Position numbers and translations under genes: made by a program. Positions 3,038 to 55,735 of a stretch of DNA of 64,000 nt are shown here, in pieces. Location of the stretch: contig CBDEGF010000004.1 in assembly GCA_965237685.1 (NCBI GenBank), positions 264,541 to 328,540 of the forward strand. The letters run 5' to 3'. Source of the DNA: Candidatus Marinacidobacterales bacterium. Its GTDB lineage: Bacteria > Acidobacteriota > Vicinamibacteria > Marinacidobacterales > SMYC01. Under the pieces are notes generated by a model that ran no database searches, was not told where the DNA came from, and was given only the letters and a program-made list of their open reading frames with translations. Position 1 is the first letter of the stretch; each line of letters begins with the position of its first letter.

Positions 3038-3553
3038 CTAACGAGGCCTGGAGTTTTCCAGAGCCTCGGCCTTCGCGACGACAGCCGCCGCGGTCTTTTC
3101 ACAGGAGTCGTAGCAGCGAAGCTTGAGCACGAACGTTTTCAGGCGAACATCCAGCTTTCGCCGAAACCTCTTGAGGTAGTCCTCGGTACCGAGCTCGATG
3201 CGCTGAGCGCCGCTGTGCACCGTAAACGGCGTCACCGCGAGGCGCGCGGTGTAGTCCTCACCGTCCGCGCGGGTGCCTTCGACGCGCAACTGGGTGAGCT
3301 CCGGCTCGACGCGACCGAGCTTCGGGTAGTATGTGAACTGGAAGATCTTCCTGCCCGGCACGCGTCCCGCGACTTCGTCACCCTGGTACAAAACCGAGTT
3401 CTCCAGGTGTGGACAGGTGCGAAAATAGATTGGAACGTAGATGCTTCGGGTAAGAAACTCACCGGCAAGGGCAAGGTTCGACGCAGCGAAAAGGGTCACT
3501 ATGAGGACGAGCAGCGCGATCCTCGAGTGGCGGGTGAAAGTGATCTCGGCCAT
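3038..3553 (-). CDS. Hypothetical N-terminally membrane-anchored protein (about 171 aa from the internal Met)
   Basis: GGAG RBS precedes ATG 3553 (MAEITFTRHSRIALLVLIVTLFAASNLALAG = signal anchor). The longer ORF from 3658 lacks an RBS. Confidence 0.45.
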   Translation of the reverse strand: MAEITFTRHSRIALLVLIVTLFAASNLALAGEFLTRSIYVPIYFRTCPHLENSVLYQGDEVAGRVPGRKIFQFTYYPKLGRVEPELTQLRVEGTRADGEDYTARLAVTPFTVHSGAQRIELGTEDYLKRFRRKLDVRLKTFVLKLRCYDSCEKTAAAVVAKAEALENSRPR

Positions 3554-3891
3554 GGCAAGCTCCAACACTGGGAGTGCAGTCCACCGGGTTAGCTGCAGGT
3601 GCCCCCACAAACACCCGCGCACCGGGCACTCTTCGCCGGCTTCATTCGCCGGCTTCAAGGCCTGTGACCGCCGCGATCTAGTCGAATAAACTGTTCTGGA
3701 AGCTGTTAAACCTACTTCTTTATAAAAGCAAGAAGGATGCCAGGCAGGGTGAGTCCGTAAACCGTTGCGTTCTCGTTCGACGCGAGTGGAAATACGTCAG
3801 ATCCGATGTTCCAGAATGACAAAGTTTGGTCCCGGGTGTGGGTTTTTTCCGGAACCAAGTGTGGGGCTTTTCGGAATACGATAGCGGGGCG

Positions 3892-4071
3892 ATGCGTACG
3901 ATCGATAGCCCAGACCAGACGTCGACCCTGCTGAGGGACGTCAAACATCTGCGGCGGCTCGCATCGATGCTGTTCGCCTACTTCACTGCGGGCGCCCGCG
4001 TGCGGCGCCTTTATCGCAAGAAGGAAGAAGACGGCGACGTCGTCTGGGTCGATGAGGAGATGTCCCCGTGA
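3892..4071 (+). CDS. Small hypothetical protein, translationally coupled (GTGA overlap) to the downstream Fe-S gene
   Basis: MRTIDSPDQTSTLLRDVKHLRRLASMLFAYFTAGARVRRLYRKKEEDGDVVWVDEEMSP. It sits in a lower-GC segment (3690-3830). Confidence 0.3.
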   Translation: MRTIDSPDQTSTLLRDVKHLRRLASMLFAYFTAGARVRRLYRKKEEDGDVVWVDEEMSP

Positions 4072-5025
4072 AACCAGATGCGCCTCCAGGAACGAGCTAC
4101 GCCTTTGGCTATCGCCATGCCCCGGAACCGGGAAACGCCATCAACGGGCTCGGGGAAAAAGACCGACGCCAGGCTCGCCATGTGTTTCACAACGCCACGG
4201 GAGAAGATCTGGCCTGGAAGGACCTCGATAACTTCTTTAGTTACATCAACCCATGGGGCGTGGTCCGACAGCTGCTGGCGAACAGCTGGCAGCTGCGGCG
4301 CCGTCAGGGCCCGGTAGGCAGCTCTTGCCGGGCGGTCGACGATCCCCGGGCCATGGCCTCGGAGATCAAGGCCAAAGCGCGTGAGCTGGGTGCGGGGCTG
4401 GTCGGGATCACCCGCATCACGGAAGAAGCCCTGTACGAGGGTCACGAGGTGTCCTACGAAAGCGCTGTCTGCATCGGGCTCCCCATGAACCGCGTGGAGA
4501 TGGTCCACGTTCCCCAGAAGCGCGCCGCGGTGGAAGTCATGCGTACCTATCGTCGCGTGGCCCGCATCGCCATCGAGCTCGGCGAACACATCCGGCGCAT
4601 GGGCTGGCCCGCCAAAGCGTACGGCAATCCGAACAGCACCGAGATCCTCCACATCCCCCGCTGTGCGGGCCGGCCTGGGCGAGCTGGGAAAGCACGGCTC
4701 CATGATCAGCAAGGAGTACGGCTCCAACTTCCGGCTGGCGGCAGTGCTCACCGACCTCCCGATGACTTACGACGAACCGGTGGACATTGGCGTCGAGGAT
4801 GTCTGTACTCGCTGCCGGCGCTGCGTCATCGACTGCCCACCCGACGCTATCTTCAACGAAAAACAGTGGATACGCGGCGAGAAGCGCTGGTACGTGGACT
4901 TCGACAAAAGTATCCCGTACTTCGTGAAAACCTACGGCTGCGCCATCTGCATCGAGGTCTGTCCCTGGAGCGAGCCAGGCAGCGGCCCGAAGCTGTCGGA
5001 GCTCGTCCTCGCCAATCGAAAGTGA
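4068..5025 (+). pseudogene. QueG-like / reductive-dehalogenase-like 4Fe-4S dicluster protein with a +1/-1 frameshift at a C5 homopolymer (4655-4659)
   Basis: Frame 1 reads ...NSTEILHIP through the CCCCC run, then frame 2 continues AVRAGLGELGKHGSMISKEYGS...CTRCRRCVIDCPPDAI...YGCAICIEVCPWSE. These are two ferredoxin-type CxxCxxCxxxCP motifs. Removing one C restores IPAVRAGLGELGK, the conserved QueG-family motif. Confidence 0.55.
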
Positions 5026-5039
5026 ATGGGTTCACGGAG

Positions 5040-5085
5040 CGGGGAACCCGCAACCAAGAAAAAGATCAACGCAAAGACGCGAAGT
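5040..5085. repeat. Short dispersed repeat (CGCGAAGTCGCCAAGATCGCAAAGG core); second copy at 63435-63512
   Basis: AACCAAGAAAAAGATCAACGCAAAGACGCGAAGTCGCCAAGATCGCAAAGG at 5043-5083 matches AACCAAAAGAAAACGAAAAGGCGCAAAGACC...TTGCGATCTTTGCGACTTCGCG at 63435-63512. Confidence 0.5.
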
Positions 5086-5333
5086 CGCCAAGATCGCAAA
5101 GGTTCACTCCTCCTCGCCTTCGGCGGCCTTTGCGCCTGAGGTGGCTCCGTGGCGAAAGCGTTGCCTTGGCTGGAAAAGACGCGAGCTGAGGCGGAAAGAA
5201 TGGGTTCCGGGTACATGGAGCGAGTCTTGCGTTCTTTCGGCCTTCGCGCCTTTGCGTTGTCTTTTCTCTACAGGAAACAGAGGCCCGTCACGGTGGATGC
5301 CGTGTTGCGGCGACACGAAGTTCGGCTCGCGAA

Positions 5334-7148
5334 TCACTCCGACTCGCGGAGCAGCTGAAGGAACACCTCGCCGTACTTGTCGAGCTTGGCGGCGCCGACG
5401 CCGGAGATCGTGGCCAGAGACGCGAGCGAGCTCGGCTTTTCGATCGCCATCTCGATCAGCGTTCGATCGTGGAAGATGACGTAGGGTGGGAGGTTCGCCT
5501 CACGGGCAAGCTCGAGCCGCTTCGCGCGCAGGGCTTCGAAGAGCTTTTCGTCTCTGAGTGACGTCAGTACCGTCGCCGTCGACCGACCCGCTTTCGGTTT
5601 TCCGCTGCCCTTGACGGGCGCTGGATCGCGGCGCAAGGTGAAGCCCGCCTCGCCTTTGAGAACCGGCCAGGCGTGCCGTGCGAGCGACAGGCCTCCGTGC
5701 TCCGGCTCGACCGCGAGCATGCCAGCCGCCACCAGCTGTCGATACACGCTCATCCACCCATTGCGATCGCGCTCTTCCCCGATGCCGAAGGTCGAGACGC
5801 TGGAATGTCCGTTGCGGCGGACACGCTCGTCGTCCTTGCCCAAGAGGACATCGGCGAGGTAGGCGGCGCCAAAGCGCTGGCCGGTGCGGTAGACGTTCGA
5901 AAGGGCTTTCTGTGCCTCGGTCGTTCCGTCGTAACTCTCGACGGGATTCAGGCAGGTGTCGCAGTTCCCGCACTCGCCCGCGTGCTCCTCGCCGAAGTAA
6001 CGCAGCAGGACTGCCCGCCGGCACTCGGCACTCTCGCAATACCCTAGAAGGCTGTTGAGCTTCAGATGCTCGATTCGCTTCCGCTCGAGCGAGGTGTCGG
6101 ACCGCTCGACGAGTTGGCGGATGAGGACCGCATCGCCGTAGCCGTAGCACATCCAGGCATCGGAGGGGAGGCCGTCACGGCCCGCCCGCCCGGTCTCCTG
6201 ATAGTAGGCCTCGAGGCTCTTCGGCAGATCCAGATGGGCGACGAAGCGCACGTCCGGCTTGTCGATACCCATGCCGAAGGCGATGGTCGCGACGATGACG
6301 ACGCCGTCCTCGTTCTGGAAGCGCTCCTGGTGCGCCTGTCGAACGCTTTTGTCGAGCCCGGCATGATAGGCGAGCGCTTCGATCCTCTCTTCGCGCAGCC
6401 ACCCCGTCGTCTGCTCGACTTTCTTCCGGCTCATGCAGTACACGATGCCGCTCTCGCCGGAATGGCGTGCCCCAAGAAAGCGCAGGAGTTGGCGGCGCGC
6501 GTTCGACTTCGGCACCACCTCGTAACGGATGTTGGGCCGGTCGAAGCCCGAGACGAACAGTCCTGCCTCGGGAAGCGCGAGATGCGACAGGATCTCGCGG
6601 CGGGTCGGCGCATCGGCGGTGGCGGTCAGCGCAATCCGTGGCACTTCCGGGTACCGCTCTTGGAGCACGTCGAGCTTCCTGTATTCGGGACGGAAGTCGT
6701 GGCCCCACTGACTGACGCAGTGGGCCTCGTCGATCGCGAAAAGAGCGATCCGGGTCCGGTCGAGCTGCTCCAGAAACGACGAGGTGACGAGCCGTTCGGG
6801 CGCGACGTAGACGAGATCGTACCTGCCGGCCACCATGTCGGTCTCGATCTGCCGCGCCTGGTGGGGCGGAAGCGTCGAGTTGACGAAGGCCGCTTCGATG
6901 CCGGCCTCGCGCAGGGCATCGACCTGGTCCTTCATCAAGGCAATCAGCGGTGAGACGACGAGACCCACGCCCTCTCGGGCCATCGCCGGGATCTGGTAGC
7001 AGAGGCTCTTGCCGCCGCCGGTCGGCATGAGCACCAGCGCATCGCCACCGGCCACGACATGATCAATGACGCTCTCCTGCAGGCTCCGAAAGCTCGAATA
7101 GCCGAAGACGGATCGCAGGATCTCGTGAGGTGTGGAGCGTGCAGACAT
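5334..7148 (-). CDS. recQ: ATP-dependent DNA helicase RecQ
   Basis: 604 aa: [44 protein letters not shown] box ([20 protein letters not shown]), Zn-binding CxxC...C, RQC and HRDC ([23 protein letters not shown]). Confidence 0.95.
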
Positions 7149-28677: not shown

Positions 28678-29574
28678 ATGCGCCTCGTGACTCGTGGAAA
28701 CCTGGATGGTCTCACCTGTGCGGTTCTCATCAAACATGCGGAGCGCCTGGATTCGATCGAGCTCATTCACCCCCAGGACATCACCGACAGCGTCTTCGAG
28801 ATCAAAGCCGGAGATATTCTGGCCAACGTGCCCTATCACCCCGCCTGCGCCAAGTGGTTCGACCACCACTCGGCGACGCGGACCTACGAGAAGCCGCCCG
28901 AAAGGTTCGAGGGGAATTTCGGTCTCGCTCCCAGCACCGCCCGCCTGGCGTACGACTACTACCTGCACGAAAACCCCGGTCTGAAGCTCTACGAGGAGCT
29001 GGTCAAAGAGACGGATCGCTACGACAAGGCCGATCTCACGGTGGAGGACGTCACCGACCCCAAAGGCTACATCCTCCTCGGATTCACCATGGATCCTCGC
29101 ACCGGCCTCGGCGACTTCCGGAACTACTTCTTGAACCTCGTGGAGGAGCTCGCCGAGAAATCGGCAGACGAGATTCTGGGCCTCCCCGAGGTGAAGGCGA
29201 GAGTGGATCGCATCGCGGAGGAGCGCGAGAAGTTCCTCGACGCCACGCGCAAATACTCACGTGTCGTGAAGAACCTGGTCGTGACCGACCTGCGGGACGC
29301 GGTGGATCTGCCTGCCGGCAATCGCTTCCTTATTTATACGCTGTACCCGGAGACCAACGTCTCGATGCGGATTGCCTGGGGTCCGAACAAGAAGTTCGTC
29401 GTGGCCACCGTTGGCCACAGCATTTTCAACCGCACCTGCGAGGTACACGTAGGCAGCCTGCTCGCCAAGTACGGTGGCGGCGGTCACAAGGGCGCCGGCG
29501 CCGCGCCTCTCGACGCGGAGCAGGCCAACGAGCTCATTGGCGAGCTAATCCCGAAGCTCACCGAAGAGTCCTAG
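28678..29574 (+). CDS. DHH/DHHA1-family phosphoesterase (NrnA-like) - tentative
   Basis: C-terminal GGGHKGAGAA matches the DHHA1 GGGH motif. N-terminal DHH-like region is present. The stop codon TAG lies inside the MITE terminal repeat. Confidence 0.5.
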   Translation: MRLVTRGNLDGLTCAVLIKHAERLDSIELIHPQDITDSVFEIKAGDILANVPYHPACAKWFDHHSATRTYEKPPERFEGNFGLAPSTARLAYDYYLHENPGLKLYEELVKETDRYDKADLTVEDVTDPKGYILLGFTMDPRTGLGDFRNYFLNLVEELAEKSADEILGLPEVKARVDRIAEEREKFLDATRKYSRVVKNLVVTDLRDAVDLPAGNRFLIYTLYPETNVSMRIAWGPNKKFVVATVGHSIFNRTCEVHVGSLLAKYGGGGHKGAGAAPLDAEQANELIGELIPKLTEES

Positions 29575-29788
29575 TGCACGAACCCGCTGATACTGTCGGC
29601 AAACTCCAAAGTCATTTTTCGTGCTGGCAAGGCGCTCCGACGAAGTCATATCTAGATATTTCGAGCCGCCTTCCGCAGCGAGCCTGTCGAGCGGAGGGCT
29701 AGGCCGGAGGCCGAACTGCAACAAATGGAGCAACGCCGCCAGCGCGGAAAAGGACGAGGAATTTGCGGCAGGATTAGCGGGCTCGTGC
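29571..29788. mobile_element. MITE-like non-autonomous element (218 bp) with 21-bp terminal inverted repeats and a GAGTC 5-bp target duplication
   Basis: Left end is CTAGTGCACGAACCCGCTGAT. Right end is ATTAGCGGGCTCGTGCAC. Flanks are GAGTC (29566-29570) and GAGTC (29789-29793). A second, internally deleted copy in opposite orientation is at 36683-36843. Confidence 0.6.
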
Positions 29789-29793
29789 ACGAG

Positions 29794-30657: not shown

Positions 30658-30906
30658 ACTGACCTATTATAGGCACGTGACGAAGAGATACGGGTTTCTG
30701 CTCTGCTCTGGCCAGTCTTTCGGCCTGCGCCGAAGAGACGGCGCCAAGCTCGGTGATTGCCGGAATGGCCCGGGTCGATGCGGTCCAAGCGCGCATCCTG
30801 GAGTCCTTCCCGGTCCAGGTGCATGGTGTCCTTGCGGCAGCAGTGCGTGACTTAGGTGCTGTTGGGTTCGTAAGCTGAGCGGAGAGATTGCTCAAGGAGG
30901 CCATCG

Positions 30907-31449
30907 ATGCGCTCAAAGAAGGCAGAACTCGAAGACGTTGTGAAACAGTTCGAAGCATGGCGGGCGAAGCCACACGGACGGCTGATCCCGGAGGAGTTGT
31001 GGAAAGCGGCGCTGGGGTTGCTCGATCGGTATGCGCCGAGCACGATCTGCAGTCATCTCCGAGTCAATGCGGCGCGATTCAAACAGGTCCGAGAGAGTGG
31101 AGGGGCCGTTGTGGGCGAGAAGCGTTTCAAGGGGCACGGGCGAACGGGTGCTACGGGTCGGTCCCCGCGCACAGTACAGGATCGGAGTGCGGCGGAGCGG
31201 GTCACGGCGTTAGCTCCAAGTGGCAACGCGTTCGTCGAGCTGCCGCAGTTCGGCATGGGCTTAGGGGGCGGCATGATGACACCGCCGCTCGGCGAGGTTC
31301 AGCATGGAGCGAGCAGATGCCGTCTGACGGTGGAGAGCGCAGCGGGGAGCCTCACGGTCGTGACGGCGAGCGGCGAGGGTGAGAATGAGTTGGTCGAAGC
31401 CGTGTGTCGTTTCGTGCTCGGCGCGCTGGAAGGCAGCTCCCGAGCATGA
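30907..31449 (+). CDS. IS66 Orf1 (TnpA-like accessory protein)
   Basis: AAGGAGG RBS. MRSKKAELEDVVKQFEAWRAKPHGRLIPEELWKAALGLL is the typical IS66 orf1 N-terminus. Confidence 0.65.
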   Translation: MRSKKAELEDVVKQFEAWRAKPHGRLIPEELWKAALGLLDRYAPSTICSHLRVNAARFKQVRESGGAVVGEKRFKGHGRTGATGRSPRTVQDRSAAERVTALAPSGNAFVELPQFGMGLGGGMMTPPLGEVQHGASRCRLTVESAAGSLTVVTASGEGENELVEAVCRFVLGALEGSSRA

Positions 31450-31799
31450 TCCAGCTCGTTCCCCAGCTGAAGGTGCTGGTTGCCTGCGAGCCCGTCGATT
31501 TCCGCAAGGGCATCGATTCTTTGGCTTGTGTGTGCCGGCAACAGTTCCAGCTCGACCCATTCCTCGGAACGCTATTCGTTTTCCGCAACCGTTCAGGCAC
31601 GGCCCTCAAACTATTGGTCTACGACGGCCAGGGCTTTTGGTTGTGCCAGAAGCGTTTCTCGAAGGGGCGCCTGCAGTGGTGGCCGCGTCAGACGACGGAT
31701 GGCGTTGCGGCGCTACCCGCCGAGCAGTTGGCGGTGCTTATCTACAACGGACTTCCGCTGCGAGCGGGGATGGCCGAGCCGTGGCGGCGGGTCGGTTGA
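31446..31799 (+). CDS. tnpB: IS66 Orf2 (TnpB)
   Basis: MIQLVPQLKVLVACEPVDFRKGIDSLACVCRQQFQLDPFLGTLFVFRNRSGTALKLLVYDGQGFWLCQKRFSKGRLQWWP is canonical IS66 TnpB, full length (117 aa). Confidence 0.8.
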   Translation: MIQLVPQLKVLVACEPVDFRKGIDSLACVCRQQFQLDPFLGTLFVFRNRSGTALKLLVYDGQGFWLCQKRFSKGRLQWWPRQTTDGVAALPAEQLAVLIYNGLPLRAGMAEPWRRVG

Positions 31800-33290
31800 G
31801 CCTTTCCAACGTCTTCTGGTAGCTCCAAGGCAGCCACGACTCGGGTGCTGCTCTAGCGTCTCGAGCGTGCATGGAGATGTTCGTCAGATAGTGCACCGGG
31901 TCGACACCGTTTTTTACCGCGGTGCGGATCATGCTCAGGAGCACGTCGCCCACGTCGGCGCCTGCTGGGTCTTGAAGAAGAGCGAGTTCTTGCGATGCCG
32001 TTGTGAGGGCTTCAGCTCCTGCTCGACCTCGTTGTTGTCGAGGGGCACGCCCGGCACTTCGAGGAAGCGGGTTAGCCCTTGCCAGTGATTTTTGACGTAG
32101 GAAAAGGCTTTTCCAAGGCGGCTGTTGGGCTCCACCACGCGCTCGCGGAACTGCTTTTCGATCCACTCGTAGAGCGCATCCATCACCGGCCGGCTGTGTT
32201 GCTGGTGATATGCAAGCCGCGCATCGGGGGTCATGTCGCGCGTTTCGTCGTCGTTGCGGTAGATGGTCGCGATGTCCTCGAGCACCCGCTCGCAGTGTTC
32301 GGGGAAGGCTGGCTCGGCCTCGAAGAAGTAGCGGCGTGCGTGCACCATGCACTTGGCGGTAATCCGTCGCGGCGAGCGCGGTGCCATCGAGGAGGCGTCG
32401 GCCATATGGATGACATCGCTCTCCTGAACGGTGCGCTGATTCAGGAGCCGGTCCATGTTTTCGCCCGCATGCCGTCGTCCGCTCGCGTACAGGATGATCG
32501 GAGCAAGCGTGGCGTCCAAGCCGCGGGCAACAATGCCCGTGGTGAAGATGCCCGTGCGCTCGCCTTTGCCTTGAGTCAAGGTCTCGTTCTCCGCCATCAA
32601 CGTGAGGATCCGTGCGCCGGTGTCGTCACTGTGAACCAGCGGCCGGTTCGCGGCTATCGTCTCCATGTGGCGGAAGACCGGGAACACGGCATTCGCCATC
32701 GCTTCGACCCGCTCGAACTGCGTGGAGGCGGCAAACGGAACCCCCGCCCACTTTTGCCACTGCGCCAGGCGGTGGTGGGGCATGCCCATGGCGTAGCGCA
32801 ACACCGAAACGACCGCGTCCACACTCGGATGGTACTTGCTCGCCCAGGCCTGAGACGGAAGTGGCGCTGTGAACGTCTTCTGGCAACTTGCGCATCGCAG
32901 CATCTGGCGCTCGTACACCGTCGCCTGGATCGGCGGCTGAGCCTTCAGCTCCACATCCTTGTTCGCCGCATGGGTGTCGTAGAGCTTGCCCCGGCACAGT
33001 GGCTCGGGGCAGGGGCCGCTCGCCTTCAGCTCGGGATGCGAAACCGCTACGTGCTCGGCACCAGGGTAGTCCTTGGCCCCGTTGCGCCCGTGGCCCTTGT
33101 TCTTCCCTTTCCCCTTTGCCTTCGTGCGTTTCGCGCGACGTTCCGTTGTCGCCATGCCAGCGCCTCGACGATAGCGACATCGCAGCAGATGACGCACCGC
33201 CTCGAGCAGCACCGGACACGCATCCTCGGGAATCTCCCCTTTCGACAGCCGCTCTTCCAGGCGCAGGAGCTCGGCCCGCTCGACCTTCAT
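31780..33290 (-). pseudogene. IS66-family transposase TnpC with a C-terminal frameshift, in inverted orientation relative to tnpA/tnpB
   Basis: Zn-finger CPEPLCRGKL...CASCQKTF, DDE region, then PLDNNEVEQELKPSQRHRKNSLFF. After a -1 shift it continues AGADVGDVLLSMIRTAVKNGVDPVHYLTNI...ESWLPWSYQKTLERL (IS66 C-terminal signature). It ends with no stop, abutting the tnpB 3' end. Confidence 0.75.
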
Positions 33291-34201
33291 CGCGAAACGC
33301 CGAGCTCTCGGCGAAACTCACGCACCAGCGGATACACCAAGCATGTTTTCACCGCTTCGGCTTTTCTCTTGTGCCGGTCCATCCGGCCCCGGCCCGAAGT
33401 CACTCCCACCTCCACCCAGTTCGCTGCCAGATAGCACGTCCCCTCGTAACGCTCCCTCTCCACAAACGTCTCGAGCAACACCGGCCTCACCCCGTAGGCT
33501 TCCTCCCAGTCATCGACCACCACTCGCGCTGCCAACGACAGCACGTGACTCGCGAGGCCTTTGATGGAAAGCCACGGCAGGATCAGGAACCGACTGTTGT
33601 TGACCACCCGGGGAAGGTTCTTCTGCCGCGTTGCGTCATCCCAACCGATGAAGCCGTCACGCGCCTGAAGCCACCGCGCCGCCGAGGAGAACTGCACGCA
33701 CCCACAGAGCTCCCGCCGAGGATTCGACATCCAGACCAAGTACCGCAGGTGCGCGCCAAAGGCCACCTTGTGGCCCAGGTAGTGGTAACGCGCGACCAGT
33801 TCCCTCCATAGCGCTCGCTCCTCAGCGTTCGCCACCAAGCCCAGCATCACCGGAGCGACGTCCGATAGCTTGCCCTCACGCCGTGGCCGCTCGCGACCAG
33901 CCTTCGTGTAGTGGATGCTCGTCGGTCCGCGGCGCCGCTGCTCGTGACGCGGGGGCAACGTCACCAGCCCCTTCGCTTCGACAACCTCCAGGTACTCGTA
34001 GCATTCCCGGGTCTTGAGATTGCCGTTCCGACGAACCCACCCCAGGCCCTCACAGATCGTGCGCGCCAGCTCGTGCCGGGACAGACCACACGTGGCGATG
34101 ATCTCCGTCAGCACGCTCCATTCCTCGGCGGTCACGGTCGTGCCGCAAAAGGTGGGTCGCTTGGCTGCGGTGTCGAGTGCAGCGTTTCCTGTCTGGGTCA
34201 C
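33287..34201 (-). CDS. Conserved 304-aa IS-associated accessory protein (wHTH-like N-terminus + HYLG / NNSRFLILPW C-terminal domain; possibly DUF4338-like), translationally coupled (ATGA) to TnpC
   Basis: GGGAGG RBS precedes the GTG start. LSRHELARTICEGLGW...ECYEYLEVVEAKGLVTLPP; ARYHYLGHKVAFGAHLRYLVW...DGFIGWDDATRQKNLPRVVNNSRFLILPWL. The same gene (5'-truncated) precedes TnpC in the second copy at 53459-53989. Confidence 0.6.
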   Translation of the reverse strand: MTQTGNAALDTAAKRPTFCGTTVTAEEWSVLTEIIATCGLSRHELARTICEGLGWVRRNGNLKTRECYEYLEVVEAKGLVTLPPRHEQRRRGPTSIHYTKAGRERPRREGKLSDVAPVMLGLVANAEERALWRELVARYHYLGHKVAFGAHLRYLVWMSNPRRELCGCVQFSSAARWLQARDGFIGWDDATRQKNLPRVVNNSRFLILPWLSIKGLASHVLSLAARVVVDDWEEAYGVRPVLLETFVERERYEGTCYLAANWVEVGVTSGRGRMDRHKRKAEAVKTCLVYPLVREFRRELGVSR

Positions 34202-34304
34202 TGTTTTCCTCCCAGCCTGAGATTACACAGTCAGCCAGCGTTTGTCCAGTCCTTTTTTCCCTCTCTCTCTGCCCGCGAGAAAAACGACACACCCGGCGTT
34301 CAGC

Positions 34305-34601
34305 TTACCGAATCGCCCCCACGTTCTCACGCACTACTACCGCAAGGACACGGTGCATGCCGTTGCGACCGGCAACCTGCCGGATCCCTGCACGCGCATC
34401 GACGAGGTCAGCCAATCCCGTCAGGGGAACGTATTCACCGTTCGATTGACGACCGCGCGGCCCGCCGATGTCGCGTGTATCCAGGTGATAGCGCCTTTCG
34501 AAGAAGTCATCCCTCTAGAAGTGCGCGGCCTGCCCGCTGGAGACTACACGGTCGACGTCAACGGCGTACGGGCGAGCTTCACGCTTCAAGTGGACAATTA
34601 G
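34305..34601 (+). CDS. Hypothetical protein fragment immediately outside the IS right end (about 98 aa, no start codon)
   Basis: ...NLPDPCTRIDEVSQSRQGNVFTVRLTTARPADVACIQVIAPFEEVIPLEVRGLPAGDYTVDVNGVRASFTLQVDN. The ORF upstream portion is IS sequence. Confidence 0.3.
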   Translation, partial: LPNRPHVLTHYYRKDTVHAVATGNLPDPCTRIDEVSQSRQGNVFTVRLTTARPADVACIQVIAPFEEVIPLEVRGLPAGDYTVDVNGVRASFTLQVDN

Positions 34602-34787: not shown

Positions 34788-34793
34788 CTAGCC

Positions 34794-34868
34794 GCGTAGC
34801 TGCTGCTTCGCATCGTAGCGATGTGGACGCGAATGGTCCTCAATCAAAGTCCATCGGGCTCAGGCTCG
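34794..34868. repeat. 70-bp dispersed repeat AGCTGCTGCTTCGCATCGTAGCGAT...GGTCCTCAATCAAAGTCCATCGGGCTCAGGCT; second copy 53384-53458 abuts the truncated IS copy 2
   Basis: The two copies differ at about 6 positions. Copy 1 continues into a GGGCTCGGGCTCGGTAACGGGCACGGG block, also seen at 47671-47703. Confidence 0.8.
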
Positions 34869-36682: not shown

Positions 36683-36843
36683 CTAGTGCACGAACCCGCT
36701 AATCCTGCCGCAAATTCCTCGTCCTTTTCCGCGCTGGCGGCGTTGCTCCTCCTCGAAATATCTAGATATGACTTCGTCGGAGCGCCTTGCCAGCACGAAA
36801 AATGACCTTGGAATTTGCCGACAGTATCAGCGGGTTCGTGCAC
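36683..36843. mobile_element. Second MITE-like copy (161 bp, inverted orientation, about 60 bp internally deleted), near-perfect 5-bp target duplication TAGTG / TAGTC
   Basis: CTAGTGCACGAACCCGCTAAT...ATCAGCGGGTTCGTGCAC, with extra partial TIR copies at 36661-36682 and 36853-36872. Confidence 0.6.
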
Positions 36844-36911
36844 TAGTCCTGTCGACAACGGGTTCGTGAACAATCTCGTCCTAGCTGCGTACGGGACAAA
36901 CATGATGCTCA

Positions 36912-53301: not shown

Positions 53302-53383
53302 TGACTTGAGAGTCCGGCAGGAACGCGATCGCGCGGAGATTCTACCCTCGCGCAATCGCCATTTCAAGGCTCTCCCCAACAAA

Positions 53384-53458
53384 GCCCAGAAGCTGCTGCT
53401 TCGCATCGTAGCGATATTGACGTCGAATGGTCCTCAATCAAAGTCCATCGGGCTCAGG
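53384..53458. repeat. Second copy of the 70-bp dispersed repeat; abuts the truncated IS copy 2
   Basis: AGCTGCTGCTTCGCATCGTAGCGATATTGACGTCGAATGGTCCTCAATCAAAGTCCATCGGGCTCAGGCT. Confidence 0.8.
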
Positions 53459-55498
53459 CTGCCTTTGGCGCGCACCTGCGGTACTTGGTCTGGATGTCGA
53501 ATCCTCGGCGGGAGCTCTGTGGGTGCGTGCAGTTCTCCTCGGCGGCGCGGTGGCTTCAGGCGCGTGACGGCTTCATCGGTTGGGATGACGCAACGCGGCA
53601 GAAGAACCTTCCCCGGGTGGTCAACAACAGTCGGTTCCTGATCCTGCCGTGGCTTTCCATCAAAGGCCTCGCGAGTCACGTGCTGTCGTTGGCAGCGCGA
53701 GTGGCTTTCCATCAAAGGCCTCGCGAGTCACGTGCTGTCGTTGGCAGCGCGAGTGGTGGTCGATGACTGGGAGGAAGCCTACGGGGTGAGGCCGGTGTTG
53801 CTCGAGACGTTTGTGGAGAGGGAGCGTTACGAGGGGACGTGCTATCTGGCAGCGAACTGGGTGGAGGTGGGAGTGACTTCGGGCCGGGGCCGGATGGACC
53901 GGCACAAGAGAAAAGCCGAAGCGGTGAAAACATGCTTGGTGTATCCGCTGGTGCGTGAGTTTCGCCGAGAGCTCGGCGTTTCGCGATGAAGGTTCGAGCG
54001 GGCCGAGCTCCTGCGCCTGGAAGAGCGGCTGTCGAAAGGGGAGATTCCCGAGGATGCGTGTCCGGTGCTGCTCGAGGCGGTGCGTCATCTGCTGCGATGT
54101 CGCTATCGTCGAGGCGCTTGGCATGGCGACAACGGAACGTCGCGCGAAACGCACGAAGGCAAAGGGGAAATGGAAGAACAAGGGCCACGGGCGCAACGGG
54201 GCCAAGGACTACCCTGGTGCCGAGCACGTAGCGGTTTCGCATCCCGAGCTGAAGGCGAGCGGCCCCTGCCCCGAGCCACTGTGCCGGGGCAAGCTCTACG
54301 ACACCCATGCGGCGAACAAGGATGTGGAGCTGAAGGCTCAGCCGCCGATCCAGGCGACGGTGTACGAGCGCCAGATGCTGCGATGCGCAAGTTGCCAGAA
54401 GACGTTCACAGCGCCACTTTCGTCTCAGGCCTGGGCGAGCAAGTACCATCCGAGTGTGGACGCGGTCGTTTCGGTGTTGCGCTACGCCATGGGCATGCCC
54501 CACCACCGCCTGGCGCAGTGGCAAAAGTGGGCGGGGGTTCCGTTTGCCGCCTCCACGCAGTTCGAGCGGGTCGAAGCGATGGCGAATGCCGTGTTCCCGG
54601 TCTTCCGCCACATGGAGACGATAGCCGCGAACCGGCCGCTGGTTCACAGTGACGACACCGGCGCACGGATCCTCACGTTGATGGCGGAGAACGAGACCTT
54701 GACTCAAGGCAAAGGCGAGCGCACGGGCATCTTCACCACGGGCATTGTTGCCCGCGGCTTGGACGCCACGCTTGCTCCGATCATCCTGTACGCGAGCGGA
54801 CGACGGCATGCGGGCGAAAACATGGACCGGCTCCTGAATCAGCGCACCGTTCAGGAGAGCGATGTCATCCATATGGCCGACGCCTCCTCGATGGCACCGC
54901 GCTCGCCGCGACGGATTACCGCCAAGTGCATGGTGCACGCACGCCGCTACTTCTTCGAGGCCGAGCCAGCCTTCCCCGAACACTGCGAGCGGGTGCTCGA
55001 GGACATCGCGACCATCTACCGCAACGACGACGAAACGCGCGACATGACCCCCGATGCGCGGCTTGCATATCACCAGCAACACAGCCGGCCGGTGATGGAT
55101 GCGCTCTACGAGTGGATCGAAAAGCAGTTCCGCGAGCGCGTGGTGGAGCCCAACAGCCGCCTTGGAAAAGCCTTTTCCTACGTCAAAAATCACTGGCAAG
55201 GGCTAACCCGCTTCCGCGAAGTGCCGGGCGTGCCCCTCGACAACAACGAGGTCGAGCAGGAGCTGAAGCCCTCACAACGGCATCGCAAGAACTCGCTCTT
55301 CTTCAAGACCCAGCAGGCGCCGACGTGGGCGACGTGCTCCTGAGCATGATCCGCACCGCGGTAAAAAACGGTGTCGACCCGGTGCACTATCTGACGAACA
55401 TCTCCATGCACGCTCGAGACGCTAGAGCAGCACCCGAGTCGTGGCTGCCTTGGAGCTACCAGAAGACGTTGGAAAGGCTCAACCGACCCGCCGTTGTC
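53459..55498. mobile_element. Second, degenerate copy of the accessory-ORF + IS66 TnpC module in + orientation, inverted relative to copy 1
   Basis: About 98% identical to 31780-33764. Accessory gene is 5'-truncated (starts at FGAHLRYLVW) and carries a 52-bp tandem duplication (53649-53700 = 53701-53752). TnpC has two single-T insertions near its 5' end plus the same C-terminal frameshift. It ends at the same position as copy 1. Confidence 0.7.
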
Positions 55499-55735
55499 GA
55501 GGACTTTTCGCACCGCACCGGGCTCGGTGAGATCCTGAGGAATGGCGACCACGTTGGTGCCGTGCTTTGCCTTCAGCTCCTCAGCCAACTCGGCCAATCG
55601 CTGTTCGCGTCGAGCGACCACGATAACGTTCTTGAAACCTTCCCTCGCGAGCTCGCGAGCGAACTCCCTGCCGAAGCCCGACGAGGCCCCGGTGACCAGG
55701 GCGGTGTCGCCATACACGTCGGATAGCTTGCCCAT
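55499..55735 (-). pseudogene. N-terminal 78 aa of a short-chain dehydrogenase/reductase truncated by IS copy 2
   Basis: GGAGGGG RBS. MGKLSDVYGDTALVTGASSGFGREFARELAREGFKNVIVVARREQRLAELAEELKAKHGTNVVAIPQDLTEPGAV (TGxxxGxG NAD(P)-binding motif). Beyond 55499 the frame is IS sequence. Confidence 0.6.

Follow-up and report, generated by a model that had tools for sequence, protein, structure and literature searches.

The insertion sequence (IS) analyzed here lies at 30826-34351 of a 64,000-nucleotide (nt) stretch of contig CBDEGF010000004.1 from a Candidatus Marinacidobacterales bacterium, and this whole stretch is referred to below as the window. Besides tnpB, tnpC and an open reading frame (ORF) in the position of tnpA, which are the genes expected of the IS66 family, the element carries a fourth gene, encoding a 304-amino-acid (aa) protein related to DruA. 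We consider it highly probable that the segment 30826-34351 represents one whole copy of a 3.5-kb IS from a distinct and conserved IS66 subgroup, and this is the best explanation of the region as a whole. The druA-like gene belongs integrally to the element, is under selection and is present in addition to tnpA and tnpB; its product is most likely a dedicated accessory factor of the transposase.

Ends, target duplication and insertion site

The mobile unit comprises 3526 bp and has 25-bp terminal inverted repeats beginning with GTGTCCTTGCGG. The left repeat, at the tnpA end, reads GTGTCCTTGCGGCAGCAGTGCGTGA (30826-30850, plus strand), and the right one, at the druA end, reads GTGTCCTTGCGGTAGTAGTGCGTGA (34327-34351, minus strand); they agree at 23 of the 25 positions, and the terminus consensus for both IS ends is GTGTCCTTGCGG(C/T)AG(C/T)AGTGCGTGA. 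An earlier note on this DNA had reported that the region has no 8-bp target duplication. However, a perfect 8-bp duplication, GGTGCATG, was read directly at 30818-30825 and stands in identical form at 34352-34359, immediately outside both ends of the unit.

The limits of the element can also be read from related loci. In a scan of one genome per species, relatives of the 304-aa protein were encoded at 54 loci. In blastn comparisons, the homology of relatives breaks off at 30824-30826 on the left and at 34351-34358 on the right, and that of two loci (L003 and L004) ends at the right terminal inverted repeat. The terminal motif GTGTCCTT(G/T)CGG... occurs in about 25 related loci, each with unrelated flanks, and one of the related copies (L022) is flanked by CAACCACA at both ends. 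The inverted GTAAGCTGA(G/A)CG motifs, which the earlier note had taken as the bounds of the block, are genuine and are found at 30870-30881 (GTAAGCTGAGCG, plus strand) and 34297-34308 (GTAAGCTGAACG, read on the minus strand), but they are subterminal, lying 44 bp inward of each true end. Close as well as distant relatives align past these GTAAGC motifs and out to the true ends, and the subterminal motif is also kept at the tnpA end of the relatives L009, L011 and L008. Only two terminal motifs are present in the window, those at 30826 and 34351, and there is no IS end motif at 31785.

When 30826-34359 was deleted in silico, a continuous ORF was obtained across the junction. The restored ORF is a lipoprotein-like gene of the family PF27154, which has 380 database homologues of about 130 aa, and the aligned homologues read ...ILESFPVQVH|AVA.G.LPDPCT... 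uninterrupted through the junction. The insertion hit this small lipoprotein gene and made an 8-bp duplication of the kind typical of IS66. Taken together, the limits of homology, the terminal repeats, the GGTGCATG flanks and the restored gene therefore define an element that is 3526 bp long and is flanked by a target duplication of 8 bp. Within the interrupted lipoprotein gene, the 5' part (30677-30760) is apparently out of frame, and its two possible readings, a GTG-started MTKRYGFLLC... and a ...ALASLSAC lipobox, are in different frames; this conflict may stem from a consensus error or from decay that followed the insertion.

Gene order, relatives and decayed copies

The element consists of two inward-facing operons, tnpA-tnpB reading from the left end and the druA-like gene and tnpC reading from the right end, whose 3' ends overlap tail to tail. 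On the plus strand, the tnpA-position ORF known from the ORF listing (30907-31449, 180 aa) has an ATGA overlap onto tnpB (31446-31799, 117 aa), which was identified by PF05717 (1.5e-28) and NF033819 (94.6 bits against a cut-off of 50). The tnpA-position ORF had no Pfam or NCBIfam matches even at E values up to 5, and its pairwise BLASTP comparison with the ORF preceding tnpB in a canonical IS66 of Thiodictyon gave an E value of 2e-5. On the minus strand, the druA-like gene (33287-34201, 304 aa; PF14236, 1.4e-46) overlaps through ATGA onto tnpC (31738-33290, with its start at 33290), which encodes an IS66 DDE transposase (PF03050, 1e-48, 166.6 bits). The coupling of these two genes, as previously described, is confirmed by the ORF listing, and the 304-aa protein is unrelated to IS66 TnpA and TnpB, as had been claimed.

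The related loci, for which the layout was read by tblastn with the four window proteins, show that this arrangement is conserved. The same order, namely inverted repeat, tnpA, tnpB and then, on the opposite strand, tnpC, druA-like gene and inverted repeat, is repeated, together with the terminal repeats, across seven or more Acidobacteriota lineages whose nucleotide identity is 65-84%. It was found in Vicinamibacteria (L005), an uncultured bacterium (L009), Acidobacteriota (L015), Ca. Marinacidobacterales (L011, L022, L027, L043, L044, and L049, among more than 20 copies) and the locus L062, and in Blastocatellia (L014) it is visible as far as the contig end. This recurrence with the same terminal repeats means that the element did not arise by the nesting or recombination of two ISs. 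Two parts of the earlier note's reading are supported: the accessory ORF is conserved and co-mobilized with TnpC, and there is a subgroup of IS66 that has an additional accessory protein. The proposal that the accessory ORF replaces TnpA and TnpB fares differently: here the ORF is additional to them, and druA-like elements without tnpA and tnpB are seen elsewhere, as the two-gene element of L060 and as TnpC-DruA fusions.

In the Vicinamibacteria relative L005, all four ORFs are intact; its tnpC product has 495 aa (NF033517, 219.9 bits against a cut-off of 180), and its tnpC and tnpB stops overlap by 8 nt on opposite strands. Ratios of non-synonymous to synonymous substitution (dN/dS) between the window and L005 were 0.16 for the druA-like gene, 0.17 for tnpC, 0.06 for tnpB and 0.38 for tnpA, so that constraint on the druA-like gene equals that on the transposase.

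Compared with canonical IS66 members of the IRL-tnpA-tnpB-tnpC-IRR type (IS66, ISRm14, and IS679), where IRL and IRR are the left and right inverted repeats, the window element shares TnpC (PF03050/NF033517), TnpB (PF05717/NF033819), a small tnpA-position ORF overlapping tnpB, the 8-bp duplication and terminal inverted repeats. However, the canonical genes are co-directional, whereas here tnpA-tnpB on the plus strand faces the druA-like gene and tnpC on the minus strand, and the canonical elements have no fourth, druA-like gene coupled upstream of tnpC. IS66 termini usually start with GTAA or are formed by a GTAAGC motif, whereas the ends of the window element start with GTGTCC and its GTAAGC motif lies 44 bp inside instead of being terminal. 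Members of the ISBst12 type contain only tnpC and have neither tnpA nor tnpB. In this they resemble the element of L060 and the cluster of 810-aa TnpC-DruA fusions, although these carry the DUF4338 module and the window element retains tnpA and tnpB; to our knowledge, the module has not been described for ISBst12.

The tnpC gene of the window has suffered damage. Its frame is broken near 31975, after ...RKNSLFFKTQ, by a 1-nt gap relative to five relatives (L005, L011, L027, L009, and L063), and its ancestral TGA stop (31792-31794) is now CGA, with the frame of the tail continuing to 31738. The gene is thus not the single ORF of 31780-33290 that had been proposed. Both the gap and the loss of the stop are common to the two copies in the window. 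At the same insertion site, an orthologous IS copy occurs in a strain that shares 99.5% identity with the window (L063, ERZ25067257 contig_135, 3241-5849). It carries a 686-bp deletion in tnpC (window 32079-32764) and shares the CGA codon but not the missing base at 31975, and for this reason the frameshift is considered either to have arisen very recently or to reflect a consensus error at a run of GG.

The second copy is a decayed internal fragment at 53456-55493 on the plus strand, which corresponds to window 31785-33768 and is inverted relative to copy 1. It contains the C-terminal half of the druA-like gene (approximately residues 146-304) and tnpC; it has neither of the IS ends, no tnpA and hardly any of tnpB. 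Three substitutions separate it from copy 1, as do a tandem duplication of 52 bp (53649-53752) and single inserted T residues at 53993 and 54118. Copy 2 is a fragment of the same element and not a second unit. A near-identical inverted stretch had been reported correctly, but as it holds only about residues 146-304 it does not repeat the complete 304-aa ORF, and the shared nucleotide at which both copies were said to end is merely the point where copy 2 breaks; copy 1 continues into tnpB and tnpA. A truncated short-chain dehydrogenase gene (55494-55735, minus strand) abuts copy 2: its 84 codons for the N-terminal part lead directly into the end of the fragment, and the remainder of that gene is missing beyond the fragment's other side, which suggests an IS-associated deletion.

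Decay of this kind is found in other genomes as well. L003, from the same sample as L063, is a further truncated copy. The Ca. Marinacidobacterales genome CBDANW01 (loci among L006-L057) carries the four-gene IS in more than 20 copies, and most of these are internally deleted or inverted or have been invaded by other ISs (e.g., L008, L012, L013, L023, L030, L042, and L050), and among the CBDANW01 copies checked a target duplication remains only in L022. Perfect tandem duplications were observed in two unrelated elements, the 52-bp one of copy 2 and one of 120 bp in L060 (1129-1368), and both fall in the NNSRFLILPW...NLAS region of the druA-like gene.

Some other repeats were observed around the two copies. 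A repeat of about 225 nt occurs twice in inverted orientation (29571-29793 and 36683-36846), with 97-98% identity in two blocks and a replacement of the 61 nt in the middle. It has inverted termini of its own (GTGCACGA...TCGTGCAC) and therefore looks like a miniature inverted-repeat transposable element. One repeat lies on either side of the region with the IS, the sister strain L063 likewise has the two, and Rfam gave no match for them. A 40-nt direct repeat with 88% identity lies at 34790-34829, some hundreds of bases beyond copy 1, and at 53383-53422, about 35 nt before copy 2, and may be due to chance. An Rfam scan of the whole window at the gathering threshold gave no RNA families, and no sigma-70-like sites were found in 30700-34500, although the sigma-70 scan is uninformative for this organism.

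The druA-like protein and its family

The earlier guess that the accessory protein might be DUF4338-like proved right when the Pfam search was run: residues 115-277 match PF14236 (DruA, formerly DUF4338). The AlphaFold2 model, built from a 40-sequence alignment, has a mean pLDDT score (predicted local distance difference test) of 85. Nearly all of the top 50 Foldseek matches in the PDB are proteins of the GNAT fold, which is shared by residues ~105-295 and includes SpeG, the tabtoxin resistance protein, FeeM, acyl-homoserine lactone (AHL) synthases, TmcA/NAT10 and AtaT/KacT, with probabilities up to 1.0, E values of ~1e-4, target TM-scores of ~0.6 and sequence identities of 9-16%. The model thus shows a GNAT fold for the C-terminal domain of the druA-like protein, and DUF4338 has been assigned to the same fold in independent published work (PMC10853773). 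Relative to the GNAT acyltransferases, the druA-like protein has a non-canonical cofactor loop and an extra N-terminal domain. The N-terminal 80 residues are predicted to form three helices and a short hairpin (a separate model of residues 16-95 has a pLDDT of 89), and this helical domain probably binds DNA. The conserved motifs of the protein include YHYLGHKV, NNSRFLILPW, NLAS..LS and ETFV...G..Y.AANW, and H140, Y141, E244 and Y257 are conserved residues of its putative pocket.

The family is much wider than IS66. An exhaustive search with E values up to 1e-3 gave 7072 clusters at 50% identity. In Vicinamibacterales OZ244976.1, a druA-like gene of ~50% identity is held by a 2825-bp IS of the ISKra4 family (L034 5707-8531), which is present in ten copies that are 98.7-100% identical, has 19-bp inverted repeats and is flanked by perfect 9-bp duplications in six of the seven copies examined; it seems to have been active recently. 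As in the window element, the 304-aa homologue (50% identity) of these ISKra4-family elements (OZ244976.1, L034-L041 and L048) is encoded directly upstream of the transposase and inside the inverted repeats; they differ in having an unrelated DDE transposase (NF033572), 9-bp duplications, a length of 2.8 kb and no tnpA or tnpB. The pair of a druA-like gene and an ISKra4 transposase gene was also found in other phyla, in metagenome-assembled genomes of Pseudomonadales, Acidimicrobiales and Gammaproteobacteria. On a Thiodictyon plasmid, a DUF4338 gene lies together with an IS4-family transposase gene between 33-bp inverted repeats, and the element splits a DUF2235 gene. The element of L060 has neither tnpA nor tnpB; its druA-like gene is coupled to the gene for a divergent IS66 TnpC, and its end lies 8 nt past tnpC.

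Fusions extend this association. Among the top 150 family representatives, 49 are at least 400 aa long, and all 49 contain the DruA domain. Their partners include DDE_Tnp_1 (18), the Tn5 DNA-binding domain (10), the IS66 DDE domain (3), ISAzo13 (2) and the IS630 domain DDE_3 (1). The fusions to IS66 DDE domains place DruA at the C-terminus, the P0167 cluster being a single-ORF TnpC-DruA of 810 aa, and as many as 25 members, of independent origin, make up a fusion cluster. A DruA-like region is found, too, in a RefSeq protein that is annotated as an ISAs1 family transposase. The druA-like gene resides within ISs of three transposase families and is fused to transposases in several more. An association with IS21 was rejected; although istA and istB follow the druA-like gene in L046, they are a chance neighbor, because the IS21 inverted repeats at 6942 and 9432 leave the druA-like gene outside.

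The 304-aa protein is a distant relative of the Druantia DruA and not a component of a Druantia system. With DruA of type I Druantia it shares PF14236/DUF4338 and the core around YHYLG...FSS..W. However, of the PADLOC DruA models, which are 407-675 positions long, PDLC00002 matches only 65 residues (145-209) with 26.7 bits and an E value of 7e-7, and the window gene lies inside an IS. There are no druB-E genes in the window, where the neighbors of the druA-like gene are IS genes and housekeeping genes, and the longest ORF of the window has 1229 aa and by eye resembles methionine synthase. Membership of Druantia was rejected on the grounds of this weak partial match, the absence of druB-E and the absence of any longer ORF. 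In the literature found on DUF4338, PF14236, DruA and the accessory proteins of IS66 and ISKra4, there is no link from the family to insertion sequences, and the literature found on DruA does not state what the protein does.

Proposed role, alternative explanations and significance

We propose that the druA-like protein would be made in step with TnpC and act as an accessory subunit of the transposase. Its N-terminal domain would bind DNA, either the IS ends or the target, while the GNAT-like pocket would bind or transfer an acyl group or dock a partner, and in this way the assembly or the activity of the transposition complex would be controlled. The same module, as a neighbor or as a fusion, would serve unrelated DDE transposases (ISKra4, IS4/Tn5-like, ISAzo13, IS630, and IS66). 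In this complete form the mechanism is tentative, and we would rate its chance at a little under one-half.

Several observations weigh against the proposal or limit it. Foldseek gave no significant match for the N-terminal domain (best E value, 0.5), and its top matches, which are winged-helix and helix-turn-helix proteins, are only suggestive of a winged-helix identity. Judged by eye, the acyl-CoA loop Q/RxxGxG/A is only partly kept; it reads SIKGLA here, after the NNSRFLILPW strand, and VKNLA in most relatives, with N replacing G. The window copy itself may be inactive, as indicated by the 1-nt gap in tnpC and the 686-bp deletion in L063. The convergent four-gene variant of IS66 may already have curated examples in ISfinder. 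Moreover, some family members adjoin no transposase. In Chloroflexi/Anaerolineae (L051 5881-9570, L054 5800-9868, and L056), distant druA-like genes with 33-40% identity stand in a transposase-free setting, followed by a gene for an uncharacterized protein of 354-386 aa and then by a gene for a HerA-like ATPase that matches Pfam DUF87 and the HerA and mad8 models of PADLOC; this operon may be a defence-type use of the same module. In the 594-aa protein P0158, a DruA-like module is fused to an adenylate/guanylate cyclase domain (PF00211, 1.4e-28).

It could alternatively be supposed that the druA-like gene is cargo, a Druantia-like defence sensor or effector that benefits the host and not transposition. 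PF14236 is named after the Druantia DruA, NCBI gives close relatives the name 'Druantia anti-phage system protein DruA', and the HerA-like ATPases beside some distant relatives match defence models. However, the window offers neither druB-E nor an ORF longer than 1229 aa, and the PADLOC match is confined to 65 residues. The gene is also translationally coupled to the transposase, is carried by ten near-identical IS copies of one genome, and appears elsewhere in in-frame fusions to at least five transposase families, which would be unexpected for cargo. We therefore regard this explanation as unlikely.

Slightly less probable still is a GNAT toxin, addiction factor or host-manipulation factor that stabilizes or establishes the IS and acts outside the transposition reaction itself; it might, for instance, acetylate aminoacyl-tRNA, nucleoid proteins or host defence proteins. 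Such a role would agree with the fold likeness to the GNAT toxins AtaT and KacT and to the RNA acetyltransferases TmcA and NAT10, as well as with the strongly conserved polar residues, which suggest a working pocket. However, no antitoxin-like partner gene is present within the element, the structural matches to GNAT toxins are weaker than those to small-molecule acyltransferases, and the transposase fusions and the tolerated 10-20 copies per genome fit a cis-acting partner better than a toxin. Both the cargo and the toxin explanations are rendered less likely by this coupling and fusion to transposases and by the tolerance of so many copies.

The rearranged composite of the earlier note, in which two IS66 members were nested or recombined so that a tnpA-tnpB stump stands against an independently mobile, inverted accessory-tnpC module ending at 31785, has very little to recommend it: copy 2 does break off at the equivalent position, near the tnpC/tnpB boundary, and two-gene elements without tnpA and tnpB are known in another lineage (L060), but the model was rejected because the convergent layout with the same 25-bp termini is repeated across the lineages, clean 8-bp duplications surround the whole unit here and the copy L022, removal of the unit restores the conserved PF27154 gene, 31785 bears no end motif, the tnpC and tnpB stops overlap by design in intact relatives, and copy 2 also lacks the 5' half of the druA-like gene, as a fragment would.

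The preferred interpretation, a single four-gene IS whose druA-like protein assists the transposase, has consequences beyond this element. What TnpA and TnpB do in IS66 is still little understood; the subgroup defined here has a different layout and a fourth selected gene, and its exact ends and duplications make it testable. The finding of a winged-helix-like and GNAT-fold module at five or more unrelated transposase families suggests that DDE transposition involves an accessory function of a general kind. The broader lead is that DUF4338 'DruA' proteins are mainly transposase partners. In its strongest version, for which we see the case as evenly poised, most of the ~300-aa 'DruA/DUF4338' proteins would be an undescribed class of transposase partners that has been recruited repeatedly by unrelated DDE transposases, as a coupled upstream gene or an in-frame fusion, thousands of 'Druantia DruA' annotations would refer to IS genes, and the Druantia DruA would have been exapted from mobile elements or donated to them. 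As the family is automatically named after an anti-phage protein, counts of Druantia based on the DUF4338 domain alone would be inflated, and the family may form an evolutionary bridge between the accessory proteins of insertion sequences and a defence system.

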